This document shows positions 21,538 through 25,396 of a stretch of 64,000 nt of DNA, piece after piece (position 1 is the stretch's first letter; every line of letters starts with the position of its first letter). The stretch lies in assembly GCF_024298765.1 (NCBI RefSeq), contig NZ_CP101212.1; one strand, 5' to 3'. The notes beneath the pieces are model-generated. The model was not told where the DNA came from. It searched no databases and saw only the letters and a list, made by a program, of their open reading frames with translations. This stretch comes from Escherichia coli. GTDB lineage: Bacteria; Pseudomonadota; Gammaproteobacteria; Enterobacterales; Enterobacteriaceae. The position numbers were made by a program, and so were the translations under genes.

Positions 21538-22372
21538 TTAAAAAAGCAATTGGGTCAGATACCCCATAAGTATGGCCATACCCAGGATTACTGTCAGAAA
21601 AGCGACTATCATAGGCATTCTGAACATTGATTTAAGCAGTATTACTTCTGTCAAACTCGCTCCAGCACTACCGATTATCAAGGCCATTAATGCCCCCAGG
21701 CCCATTCCTTTAGTCATCAGCACTGATGCAAGTGGTATCACTGCCTCTGCGCGGATATACAACGGAATACCAACAACTGCACTCAGCGGTATGGCTAAGG
21801 GATTATCTGCTCCGGCATGAGCTGCAATCCACTCTGAAGGGATAAAGCCATAAATAAATGAACCTATTAATACACTTAACAAAAGATAAGGCAGAACATC
21901 CTTAAACTGCTGTAAGGCATCTTTCATAGCTAACTTTATTGGGCCAGAGGTGGTATTCGTTGTGAGATTCACATTGCCCAGATTCTCGCTGCTGCAACAG
22001 CTAACAGCTGGTTGTTCAGATGATATTGATGAACAACACGCTGATACGTTCTGCTCGTTCTTTACCGTCCTTAAGTTAATTATGGGGTTCGCTGATGAAG
22101 TACAGCAACTCGTTTTTAAAGGCAATTGAGTCGAGCTAGTGCTGCAACAACTGGAACCCGCCGACGTTTTTACCGAAGCTTCGGAATCATCGCATTTCGT
22201 GGTGCAACCACTTGATGCTGAGTTTTTGTGATCAACAATATGACGTTCAAATCCTAGTAAATCCAATACGATACTGGCAAGGACTGAGACACCGGCAGCG
22301 ATGATCGCGTACAACAAAGTTACTTTCCAGCCAAAGGTAACCCACATTAACCCCACGATAATGGGATTAAGC
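21538..22372 (-). pseudogene. ArsP-like permease, C-terminal fragment (gene split by IS66-family insertion)
   Basis: Multi-TM C-terminal portion with a Cys/Ser-rich loop (SSCCSTSS...SCCTSS...SACCSS...VSCCSS); continues to the IS66 boundary. Confidence 0.65.
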
Positions 22373-22402
22373 GTAAGCGGCTCGTCAGAACCGTATTGAT
22401 AT

Positions 22403-23974
22403 TTACTGAGAGCTCAGATCAACTTTCCAGGGCAACAGATCGCGTACCCGGTTTGCCGGCCAGTCCTGGATATGTTCAATGACGTAACGCAGCCACTTTT
22501 CTGGCTCCACATTGTTCAGACGGCATGTGCCGATCAGCGAGTACAACACCGCCGCATGTTCACCACCGCTGTCGGAACCCGCGAACATCCAGTTTTTCCG
22601 GCCTACGGCCACTCCCCGTAAGGCGTTCTCTGCGATGTTGTTGTCGATTTCCACCCAGCCATTACTGCAGTACACGTTCAGTGCATCCCACTGTTTCAGC
22701 AGGTATGCGAACGCTTTTGCCGTATCTGAGTGACGCGACAGTGTTTTCATCTGTTGCTGTATCCAGTCATACAGTGACTGCATCAGTGGCGCGGCTCTGG
22801 CTTTTCTTGCCGCCAGACGCTGTTCTGCTGAACAGCCCCGGACCTCTGCCTCGATGGCATACAGTTCACCGATACGCTGCAGGGCTTCCGTGGTGATGTC
22901 GGTGGGCGCTCTTGCATGCACATCGTGGATTTTTCTCCGGGCATGAGCCATACACGCGGCTTCCGTTATTCTGCCGGATTCGTATAACACCCGGTAACCA
23001 CCGTAAGCATCGGCCTGAAGCACACCGCTGTAACCGGCCAGGTGATTTTGTGGATGGATACCTTTCCGGTCCGGACTGTACGCGAACCAGACCGCCGGGG
23101 GCATCTGTGAACCGGCGTTGCGATCATCACGGACGTAGACCCACAGCCGGGCTGTCCGGGTTTTACCGCTGCCCGGCTCCTGGACCGGGACGGGGATATC
23201 ATCGGCATGGACTTTACCGGGCATCAGCACATACTGGCGCAGGACGTCATACAGCGGCTCCAGCAGTTCAGCAACAGCACCTGTCCAGCGCCCCAGTGTG
23301 GCACGGCTCAGCTCCACGCCCTGGCGACGGTATATTTCTGACTGGCGGTATAACGGCAGATGGTCTGCATATTTCCCGGTGACAACATGGGCCAGAAGCC
23401 CCGCTCCGGCATAACTGCGTGCAATGGGTTTTGAAGGCACCGGTGCCTGCACGATATGGTCGCACCGGCAACAGGCCTGTTTCGGACGTTGTGTTTCGAT
23501 AACCTTAAAGGCACTGCTGATAAGCTCCAGTTGCTCTGACACATCACATCCCAGTGGACTGAGTTCACCACCACAGGCCGGACAGCATTCCTCTTCCGGC
23601 CGGATGACCCGGGGTTCACGGGGAAGTGAAGCCGGTAACGGTTTACGGGCTGAAGACTGGCGCAGGGGGGATGGCAGTACCGGGTCATATTGCTCACCCA
23701 GCGTTTCTGCCATTTCTTCCTGAAGTGCGCTGATTCGCTCCTGTGCTTCCTGTATCTGCCGTTCGGTTTTTGCGCGAAGTTTTTCTGAGCTTTTACCGAA
23801 CTGCATACGCTGCAGTTTCGCAACCAGCGCCTTCAGCCGGTTGATTTCGGAAGCATAAGCCGCCACCCGCTGTGAGAGCAGGCGGTTGTATTCGGCCATC
23901 TGGCGGATGGTGTCCTGTTGCGTCTGCAACAGTGCCTGCAGGCGGGCATTCTCATGAGCAAGTGAGGTGTCCAT
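22403..23974 (-). CDS. IS66-family transposase (orfC)
   Basis: 523 aa with IS66 transposase features (CxxC zinc-finger region, DDE core). Confidence 0.9.
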
Positions 23975-23993
23975 ATCCTCACTTTACAACGGG

Positions 23994-24341
23994 TTATATA
24001 CGGATTCCAGCGCGTTCCGTTCGTTTCGGGTGCTTCCAGTCGATGCCCTCGAGAAGCATGGATAACTGAGCCGGAGTAAGGTGCACCTTGCCGTCACGGG
24101 TGACTGGCCAGACGAAGCGGCCCCGCTCCAGGCGTTTGGTGAAGAGGCACAGTCCGTCACTGTCAGCCCACAACACTTTTATCTGGTCACCCCGGCGTCC
24201 GCGGAAGATGAACAGGTGTCCGGAGAACGGGTCATCCTTCAGGACGTTCTGAACTTTTGAGGCCAGGCCGTTAAAGCCATTTCGCATATCGGTGATACCT
24301 GCAACCAGCCAGATACGCGAACCTGCAGGGAGAGATATCAT
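23994..24341 (-). CDS. IS66 accessory protein TnpB (orfB)
   Basis: 115 aa, MISLPAGSRIWLVAGITDMRNGFNGLA..., typical IS66 Orf2. Confidence 0.9.
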   Translation of the reverse strand: MISLPAGSRIWLVAGITDMRNGFNGLASKVQNVLKDDPFSGHLFIFRGRRGDQIKVLWADSDGLCLFTKRLERGRFVWPVTRDGKVHLTPAQLSMLLEGIDWKHPKRTERAGIRI

Positions 24342-25018
24342 CAGTGGCTGCTCCCTTTTATTTCGCGGATAAGTGTCTGTAATAACGCCGGCGTCAGTTT
24401 ACCTTTAAGCCTGAGAGTTCCGGCCGGCAGAACCAGCTCACAACACAGACTGTCGGACGGTGTATTTATCTGCTCTGGTTCCTGTGCGGGGGCCGGGATT
24501 TTATTATCCGGCTCCGGCGTTAACGTCACGGGAAGCAGTGCCGGCATATTTTTTCCGGAAGGCAGCAGGCCACCTTTCCGGTATTGATGGCGCCAGTTGA
24601 AGAGCAGGTTATCGTTGATTCCGTTTTCCCGGGCGATCTGCGCCACACAGGCTCCGGGCTGCAGTGACTGCTCCACTAAGGCGATTTTAAACTCATAAGG
24701 GAAGTTGGGCCGCCGGGGACGTTTTTTTACCACGGGGGCTTCGGATATAACGGTGCTTTCAGGACGTACGACTGGTACCGTGGAAAATTGTCCGTAAAGG
24801 CAGGCATCAAGTTCCTGCTCCGACATGCCTGCGGGCAAAGGCCACGAAAGGCCAGCTCTCCGAAAGCGCACGAACATACTACAAACTGTTGATTTTGATA
24901 CACCCAGGCGACGCCCGGCCACAACCCGGGGTAAATGTTCTTCAAAGTGAAGACGTAAAGCTTCAGTGATCCAGGTCCGGTGTTTCATACGATAGTGTCC
25001 ATTAAAAATGATGGACAT
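24341..25018 (-). CDS. IS66 accessory protein (orfA)
   Basis: Overlaps orfB by 1 nt; HTH-like; start uncertain. Confidence 0.7.
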   Translation of the reverse strand: MSIIFNGHYRMKHRTWITEALRLHFEEHLPRVVAGRRLGVSKSTVCSMFVRFRRAGLSWPLPAGMSEQELDACLYGQFSTVPVVRPESTVISEAPVVKKRPRRPNFPYEFKIALVEQSLQPGACVAQIARENGINDNLLFNWRHQYRKGGLLPSGKNMPALLPVTLTPEPDNKIPAPAQEPEQINTPSDSLCCELVLPAGTLRLKGKLTPALLQTLIREIKGSSH

Positions 25019-25071
25019 TATTTTTGTAGAGCCGGAGGAAACAGACCAGACGGTTTAAATGAGCCGGTTAC

Positions 25072-25396
25072 GATTAAGCAACGGTGAAACAAACAAAAAA
25101 GTGAGTGTCGGACCAAACCCTGCTTTCGCCGACAACAACCCTCGTAGCATTGGAATTGTTGAGCAACTACAGAAAGGGGTAACGGCTCCCAACAACGAGG
25201 CCAGCAGGTAGCCTTTTCCTTTTTTCGCCCCTATCAATTGCTGGATTTTATGGTCCGGGACCTTTTGCCTTATCAGGCTCACACCGGCACTGATGACAAT
25301 AAACAGCAAAGATAGCTCGACGGCCAAAAACAAAAACATCTCTGCGGCATCTTGCAGCATAGAAATCCAACTATTCATACTAAACCCTCTTGACAA
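25072..25396 (-). pseudogene. ArsP-like permease, N-terminal fragment
   Basis: Contains the TPFCSCS motif that I recall as characteristic of ArsP organoarsenical efflux permeases; interrupted at the IS66 target duplication. Confidence 0.65.

Follow-up and report, generated by a model that had tools for sequence, protein, structure and literature searches.

An ISCro1-like IS66-family element interrupts an ArsP-family permease gene carried by a Tn3-family transposon in Escherichia coli

The 64,000-nucleotide stretch of Escherichia coli DNA analysed here (NCBI RefSeq assembly GCF_024298765.1, contig NZ_CP101212.1; the whole stretch is referred to as the window) contains an ArsP-family permease gene that is split by an IS66-family insertion sequence (IS). 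The gene is paired with a divergently transcribed gene for an ArsR/SmtB-family regulator, which we call ArsR2, and both are carried by a Tn3-family transposon. The features of the interrupted gene, the insertion and the regulator are as follows.

21538-22372, minus strand: permease 3' fragment, from codon 100 to the stop, encoding the rest of transmembrane helix (TM) 3, TM4, the Cys/Ser-rich loop and the second four-helix repeat
22365-22372: left copy of the target-site duplication GATTAAGC, abutting the end of the insert
22373-25071, minus strand: the insertion, a complete ISCro1-like IS66-family element of 2,699 bp, recognised by family matches and inverted ends
22403-23974, minus strand: tnpC (DDE transposase) of the ISCro1-like element (PF03050, E 8.4e-104; NF033517, 476 bits)
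23994-24341, minus strand: tnpB of the ISCro1-like element (PF05717, E 2.8e-40; NF033819, 129 bits)
24341-25018, minus strand: tnpA of the ISCro1-like element (NF038385, 296 bits)
25072-25079: right copy of the target-site duplication GATTAAGC, abutting the end of the insert
25072-25378, minus strand: permease 5' fragment, residues 1-102 from the ATG at 25378, including TPFCSCS (Cys70/Cys72)
25379-25483: divergent control region, intact, 105 bp, from a nine-locus alignment and a promoter scan
25484-25807, plus strand: ArsR2, intact, 107 residues, divergent from the permease (NF033788, 63 bits; cut-off 55)

IS66-family elements generate 8-bp direct repeats, and the element at 22373-25071 has all three ORFs (open reading frames; tnpA, tnpB and tnpC) intact, GTAA-type terminal inverted repeats (GTAAGCGGCTC at the start and the complement of GTAACCGGCTC at the end, with 10 of the first 11 bases matching) and a perfect 8-bp duplication, so that the original prediction of an IS66 element bounded by the same 8 bp on both sides holds. 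It is approximately 98.7% identical to copies labelled 'IS66-like element ISCro1 family' in RefSeq, 100% identical copies are present in a few other E. coli, and apart from the slight divergence of the window copy we found nothing notable that sets it apart from ISCro1. By chance, the same 8 bp would stand at two fixed junctions with a probability of about 1/65,536, and the octamer has only three occurrences in the 64-kb window. An empty site is provided by plasmid pAPEC-O2-211A-ColV, which has the same locus uninterrupted; against it, the flanks (17825-22372 and 25072-26928) share an 8-base overlap that corresponds to a single copy of the target, and the joined flanks align over 6,397 bp with zero gaps. 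There is one mismatched base in each permease flank, and the remaining 12 mismatches lie inside an IS1 copy.

Because the duplication is perfect, the IS is intact and the empty site can be compared directly, we conclude that the ISCro1-like element entered the permease gene by simple transposition and not by rearrangement, as had been proposed on first inspection. That the break instead arose when two IS copies recombined, or from an assembly join that united unrelated gene halves, could be argued from the several IS elements in the window (two IS1 copies and another IS66-family element among them) and from the abundance of ISCro1-like copies in E. coli (in up to 34 places per genome), but this is effectively refuted, and has almost no chance of being correct, given the identical 8 bp at both junctions, the gapless fit of both flanks to one continuous reference with a single mismatch per permease flank, and the 100% identity of the reconstructed protein to intact copies on other plasmids.

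The insertion falls in codons 100-103 (L-L-N-P), within a nearly invariant SPLLNP motif, and parts residues 1-102 (TM1, TM2, half of TM3 and the Cys-Ser-Cys site) from the remainder of the permease; the 5' fragment runs into the IS as ...SPLLN-RNRLI-stop. No functional transporter can come from the split gene, and insertion with inactivation of the permease is as good as certain. The permease is thus knocked out while the regulator and its putative operator survive intact. Excision of 22373-25079 yields a 377-residue ORF that matches intact plasmid copies without gaps, differs at one residue from the pAPEC-O2-211A-ColV copy (I49 for M49), and is 100% identical to intact copies on several other E. 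coli and Salmonella plasmids. The gene start had been placed at 25396, where there is only an upstream TTG; the true start is the ATG at 25378, which matches the RefSeq annotation of intact copies (WP_001089730.1).

The reconstructed ORF is a member of PF03773 (ArsP_1), with a score of 180.4 bits (cut-off 32.3; E 5.7e-53) over positions 4-293 of the 294-position model, and the split ORF is a permease gene of the ArsP family (PF03773, Transporter Classification [TC] 2.A.119). The two-repeat architecture described for TC 2.A.119 (PMC7176098) agrees with that of the reconstructed permease, which has two homologous halves of four helices; residues 31-138 and 268-375 form an internal repeat (hhalign probability 96.9%, E 1.3e-10). 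An AlphaFold2 model built from 78 sequences has a mean pLDDT (predicted local distance difference test) of 81.9, with a confident membrane core and a disordered segment at residues 162-237. In the model helix 2 breaks exactly at TPFC and its counterpart in the second repeat breaks at residues 305-307; F69, C70 and C72 are invariant in all 78 aligned permease sequences. No solved relative of the permease was found either by sequence search or by Foldseek with the AlphaFold2 model (best E 1.6).

The TPFCSCS motif is present in the N-terminal fragment, as predicted, at residues 67-73 (Cys70 and Cys72), but the associated claim that it is diagnostic of organoarsenical efflux does not stand. It occurs in 98 of 150 diverse PF03773 representatives (50%-identity clusters), including members that adjoin thioredoxin, sil or housekeeping genes, and because the motif spans the whole family it gives no clue to substrate. 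Its CSC core has been described as the strongest motif that the SO_0444 Cu/Zn efflux family shares with the SaoE family (bioRxiv 10.1101/2022.07.06.499078). A 2015 survey that divided ars-operon permeases into two clusters reported tPF-C(S/T)C as typical of one of them (PMC4435449), and a membrane helix of the window permease does carry the conserved C(S/T)C motif, preceded by 'tPF'. The permease scores below threshold with both the SO_0444 Cu/Zn efflux model (NF033936; 116.1 bits, cut-off 300) and the SaoE model (NF040736; 87.8 bits, cut-off 325). We considered these scores as functional evidence and rejected them, since ars-linked permeases score alike: the same NCBIfam models give 120 bits (SO_0444) for a permease from a Klebsiella ars cluster and 85-104 bits (85 on SO_0444) for Campylobacter jejuni ArsP. 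SO_0444 and SaoE, as other branches of PF03773, share the superfamily and the Cys-Ser-Cys signature with the window permease, but relatives of the latter sit in an arsenic context and not in a copper/zinc or SAO locus.

A closer comparison is provided by C. jejuni ArsP (TC 2.A.119.1.1), for which NCBI uses the name 'organoarsenical efflux permease ArsP' and whose gene belongs to an arsP-arsR-arsC locus; the loci of two Campylobacterota representatives are not ars operons. In the strict sense exemplified by the C. jejuni protein, ArsP denotes a permease for methylarsenite or trivalent roxarsone but not for arsenite. The permease is 34% identical to C. jejuni ArsP (E 3e-62; residues 10-376 against 6-315), so that the joined fragments align with ArsP proteins in essentially full length, as the original prediction anticipated. 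Both proteins have the PF03773 fold, two four-helix repeats and an ArsR-family repressor as partner. TPFCSCSTIP is identical in the two, with Cys65 and Cys67 of the C. jejuni protein corresponding to Cys70 and Cys72 of the permease; both motif cysteines are said to have been found essential in C. jejuni ArsP by Chen et al. in 2015. One loop CC (vicinal cysteine) pair also aligns, with C225-C226 of the window permease. The differences lie in the loop and the setting. The window permease is 62 residues longer, entirely in the central loop, which carries four CC pairs plus two further cysteines compared to the one CC pair of the Campylobacter loop. The window gene is divergent from its regulator, whereas C. 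jejuni has an arsP-arsR-arsC-acr3 operon, and it is transposon-borne, without any other ars gene, and is not named ArsP by NCBI.

Close relatives of the permease are found beside arsenic resistance genes. The survey is small, since a single-protein scan of the genome collection gave six loci and the peptide patterns were too specific, and the relatives described are 62-91% identical to the permease unless stated. In E. fergusonii, E. coli and E. whittamii the regulator-permease pair directly follows arsRBC, and in two Citrobacter it follows arsRDABC; Citrobacter sp. NCU1 has the order arsH-arsR2-permease. Aeromonas rivipollensis has arsC...arsA-arsD-arsR-arsR2 followed by a divergent permease, and in Buttiauxella the permease is followed by a convergent arsCBR, plus arsH. 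Altogether, eight relative loci lie in or beside ars operons, with no fewer than four distinct gene orders, and a more distant (43%) relative lies inside a large ars cluster of a Klebsiella plasmid in the order permease-arsR-arsH. We also observed a paralogous regulator-permease pair, 44% identical, on E. coli IncF plasmids (NZ_MH580300.1, 2709-4169), whose regulator ends in ECC and which adjoins a sil silver/copper cluster, with an ISL3 element between them.

ArsR2 contains Cys73 and a vicinal Cys91-Cys92 pair as its cysteines. Its best match among solved structures is AfArsR (PDB 6J05; E 1.8e-11, 47 bits), and in this alignment 'LREECC' of ArsR2 is placed with 'LTENCC' of 6J05, so that Cys91-Cys92 coincide with the As(III) ligands Cys95-Cys96. 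The position of the CC pair is therefore common to ArsR2 and to AfArsR, which together with SpArsR has the 'type 2' C-terminal cysteine site. No counterpart of AfArsR Cys102 was found in ArsR2, and there is no cysteine in the 15-residue tail that follows the CC pair; in lacking this third ligand, which is needed for arsenite, ArsR2 resembles SpArsR, which has no Cys102 equivalent and is reported to be methylarsenite-selective (PMC11868830, PMC13236881). It differs from AfArsR, to which the match is modest, in having a different conserved third cysteine, Cys73. The ECC motif and Cys73 are kept in all regulators paired with these permeases, including that of the Klebsiella ars cluster (CC pair in 8/8).

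The control region between the two genes contains two ATTTC-N10-GAAAT palindromes that are invariant across the nine aligned loci (from Escherichia, Citrobacter, Aeromonas and Buttiauxella), with variable adjoining bases. Two promoter-like sites lie face to face, TTGACA-16-AATAAT on the plus strand (25390-25417) and TTGACC-16-TATTCT on the minus strand (25437-25410), and both palindromes overlap them. The palindromes are probably the ArsR2 operators, judging from this conservation and placement.

The central Cys/Ser-rich loop of the permease, with the four CC pairs described for the C-terminal fragment, is indeed there: 110 residues with 10 Cys and 23 Ser, and CC pairs at 175/176, 189/190, 212/213 and 225/226, much of it (residues 162-237) predicted to be disordered in the AlphaFold2 model. 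Among 12 relatives the loop ranges from about 55 to 110 residues and is otherwise variable, but three of its cysteines (C156, C189 and C225) are invariant and two more (C190 and C226) nearly invariant. The nearest family representatives have recurrent CC pairs with low-complexity linkers, up to seven pairs, and distant family members have short, cysteine-free loops. Vicinal cysteine pairs in ArsD and ArsR bind trivalent arsenicals, and for this reason a substrate-capturing tether would be the most economical reading of the loop.

Taken together, we infer an arsenic role for the permease from its homology to C. jejuni ArsP, the gene context of its relatives and the cysteine site of the regulator. 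These same three lines bear out the ArsP-like identity first proposed, and arsenical efflux is, in our judgment, the probable function of the intact protein, though by no means a secure assignment. Several points weigh against it. No ars gene is present near the module in the window or within the Tn3-family transposon, and Aeromonas veronii and several remoter relatives carry only the regulator-permease pair; such stand-alone pairs do agree with the 2015 survey, in which approximately 40% of ArsP genes stand alone (PMC4435449). Escherichia and Citrobacter may have inherited the adjacency of arsC and arsR2 as one arrangement, which would then not amount to several independent associations. The CSC motif is common to Cu/Zn efflux proteins too, and NCBI names the permease only 'permease', yet names Campylobacter proteins ArsP. 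Lastly, the placement of the loop is not straightforward: a plain eight-helix parallel topology has no positive-inside bias (family-averaged lysine plus arginine [K+R] of 7.9 against 8.0), and a cytoplasmic loop would require one re-entrant helix pair per repeat. With one broken helix re-entrant in each repeat, K+R becomes 12.7 inside and 3.2 outside and the loop is cytoplasmic.

A plausible scheme for the intact system is that ArsR2, acting as repressor, occupies the pair of ATTTC-N10-GAAAT boxes, both of which overlap the divergent promoters. Derepression would follow when Cys91-Cys92, perhaps with Cys73, bind a trivalent arsenical (methylarsenite is one possibility, a reduced aromatic arsenical such as reduced roxarsone another) and the repressor leaves the DNA. 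The permease would then export the arsenical by way of Cys70 and Cys72 at the break of helix 2, as in C. jejuni ArsP, and the disordered, probably cytoplasmic loop with its four CC pairs could act as a thiol 'antenna' that catches the substrate and passes it to the membrane site. We regard the account as a whole (an ArsP-family permease and ArsR-type repressor, carried as cargo of a Tn3-family transposon, knocked out by an ISCro1-like element and effecting arsenical efflux when intact) as reasonably likely.

The alternative that fares best is that the permease is an exporter of soft-metal cations (Cu, Zn, Cd, Hg or Ag) similar to SO_0444, with a metal-binding loop and a metal-sensing regulator. 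Cys-rich low-complexity loops are typical of metal binding in general, the CSC motif is common to the SO_0444 family, and the 44% paralogue with its ArsR-like regulator adjoins the sil cluster, but an ISL3 element separates the two. Likewise, the SO_0444 Cu/Zn efflux model is the best NCBIfam match of the permease, but its 116 bits are far under the cut-off of 300 and uninformative, given the similar scores of the Klebsiella ars-cluster permease and C. jejuni ArsP noted above. Moreover, the close relatives adjoin ars and not cop, czc or mer genes, and ArsR2 has none of the known metal sites, its best alignment being with an arsenite sensor. We therefore consider soft-metal export unlikely.

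Still less probable, to the point that we give it little credence, is that the pair is a redox or sulfur-stress module in which a persulfide/disulfide sensor of the BigR/YgaV type controls a permease that moves a sulfur compound or thiol. ArsR2 does have weaker matches to BigR (NCBIfam, 37.8 bits; PDB 3PQJ, E 4e-7) and to E. coli YgaV (E 3.7e-8), but the BigR score is far under the cut-off of 155, and ArsR2, with only Cys73, Cys91 and Cys92, has no cysteine where the N-terminal half of BigR aligns, the half in which we take BigR Cys42 to lie. Some family members pair with thioredoxin-like proteins, but the thioredoxin-paired member is just 34% identical; others adjoin YeeE/YedE sulfur transporters and DsbD-like genes, but that locus also has an arsenate reductase of the low-molecular-weight phosphatase type, and the nearest relatives of the permease are ars-linked.

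The regulator-permease pair with arsenical efflux as its probable function is borne on a transposon with the following features.

17828-26928: Tn3-family transposon carrying arsR2 and the permease gene, 9.1 kb (PF01526 transposase, E 5e-148)
17828-17865 and 26891-26928: its terminal inverted repeats, perfect over 38 bp, GGGGTCAGTTTGGATATCGAAAATTATTGTACGTTAAG
17851-20880, minus strand: transposon tnpA, intact
about 21006-21410: resolvase pseudogene, with only short ORFs left (the RefSeq equivalent has an internal stop)
25854-26621: IS1 internal to the transposon

The element has the hallmarks of Tn3-family transposons, with a DDE transposase (DDE_Tnp_Tn3), 38-bp inverted repeats (ending ...ACGTTAAG) and a 5-bp duplication, TGTAA, on both sides. 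It differs from them in that its resolvase is a pseudogene, and from their usual passengers in that it carries an arsR-permease pair and not an antibiotic or mercury resistance gene. The transposon, together with its IS1, is also present at another site in pAPEC-O2-211A-ColV with the duplication ATTAT, and since it occurs at two sites with different duplications, it has moved as a unit. We found no match to a named transposon equivalent to the 17828-26928 element. The internal IS1 has no obvious target duplication, shows 12 sequence differences from its counterpart in pAPEC-O2-211A-ColV, and is in the opposite orientation to a further IS1 copy at 14841-15608. Just outside the transposon is a second, different IS66-family element (27075-29528; 2,454 bp) with tnpC on the minus strand (27112-28650), GTAAGCG... 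ends and a perfect 8-bp duplication, CCAGAAGG.

The window is part of a ColV-type IncF virulence plasmid, an assignment made because of iro-like ORFs, IncFII RepA, FinO and a tra-like block (the latter three within 29646-64000). IncFII RepA and FinO are both encoded in the window; the order and sizes of the ORFs at 3189-12747 (387, 1261, 409, 318 and 725 residues) fit the iroBCDEN salmochelin cluster, and a block of large minus-strand ORFs at approximately 35-64 kb looks, from ORF sizes, like a tra region.

The intact module is widespread. Searched against 72,556 plasmids, it matches 646, mostly of Escherichia and Salmonella, with many of the plasmid matches among those listed coming from chicken and pig sources; among 5,426 complete E. 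coli genomes, 354 have a match, which in most cases is on a plasmid. Neither of these two collections yielded the interrupted allele. Two E. coli chromosomes covering more than 80% of the query have ISCro1 beside an intact 333-residue allele in a different arrangement; in one locus of this kind (NZ_CP106924.1, 5038-9277), the intact 333-residue permease allele and its regulator lie between arsC and slp, with ISCro1 immediately downstream. The label arsR-arsP has already been used for such a pair on Salmonella IncF plasmids (PMC9484752), and databases annotate the transporter of the intact module only as 'permease'.

The event itself is ordinary, a known IS within a member of a known transporter family, and as another IS knock-out of an accessory gene it carries little weight, although it implies that the module is dispensable for the recent host of the plasmid. 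The intact module is of broader interest. Should organoarsenicals prove to be what it exports, the module would connect arsenical feed additives with the persistence of ColV-type virulence plasmids, and would offer an enterobacterial model for how ArsP-family transporters use a cysteine-rich loop. We further entertain, as a tentative idea that we would not yet bet on, that the pair may confer resistance to trivalent organoarsenicals (methylarsenite, reduced roxarsone) as a module that is complete in itself, travels on a transposon and is spreading among poultry and pig E. coli and Salmonella on their virulence and resistance plasmids, and in which the multi-CC loop could be a built-in thiol chaperone, by analogy with the free-standing ArsD that serves the ArsAB pump. 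If so, the module would be an unrecognised co-selection factor tied to arsenical feed additives, and its permease a new mechanistic variant of ArsP.

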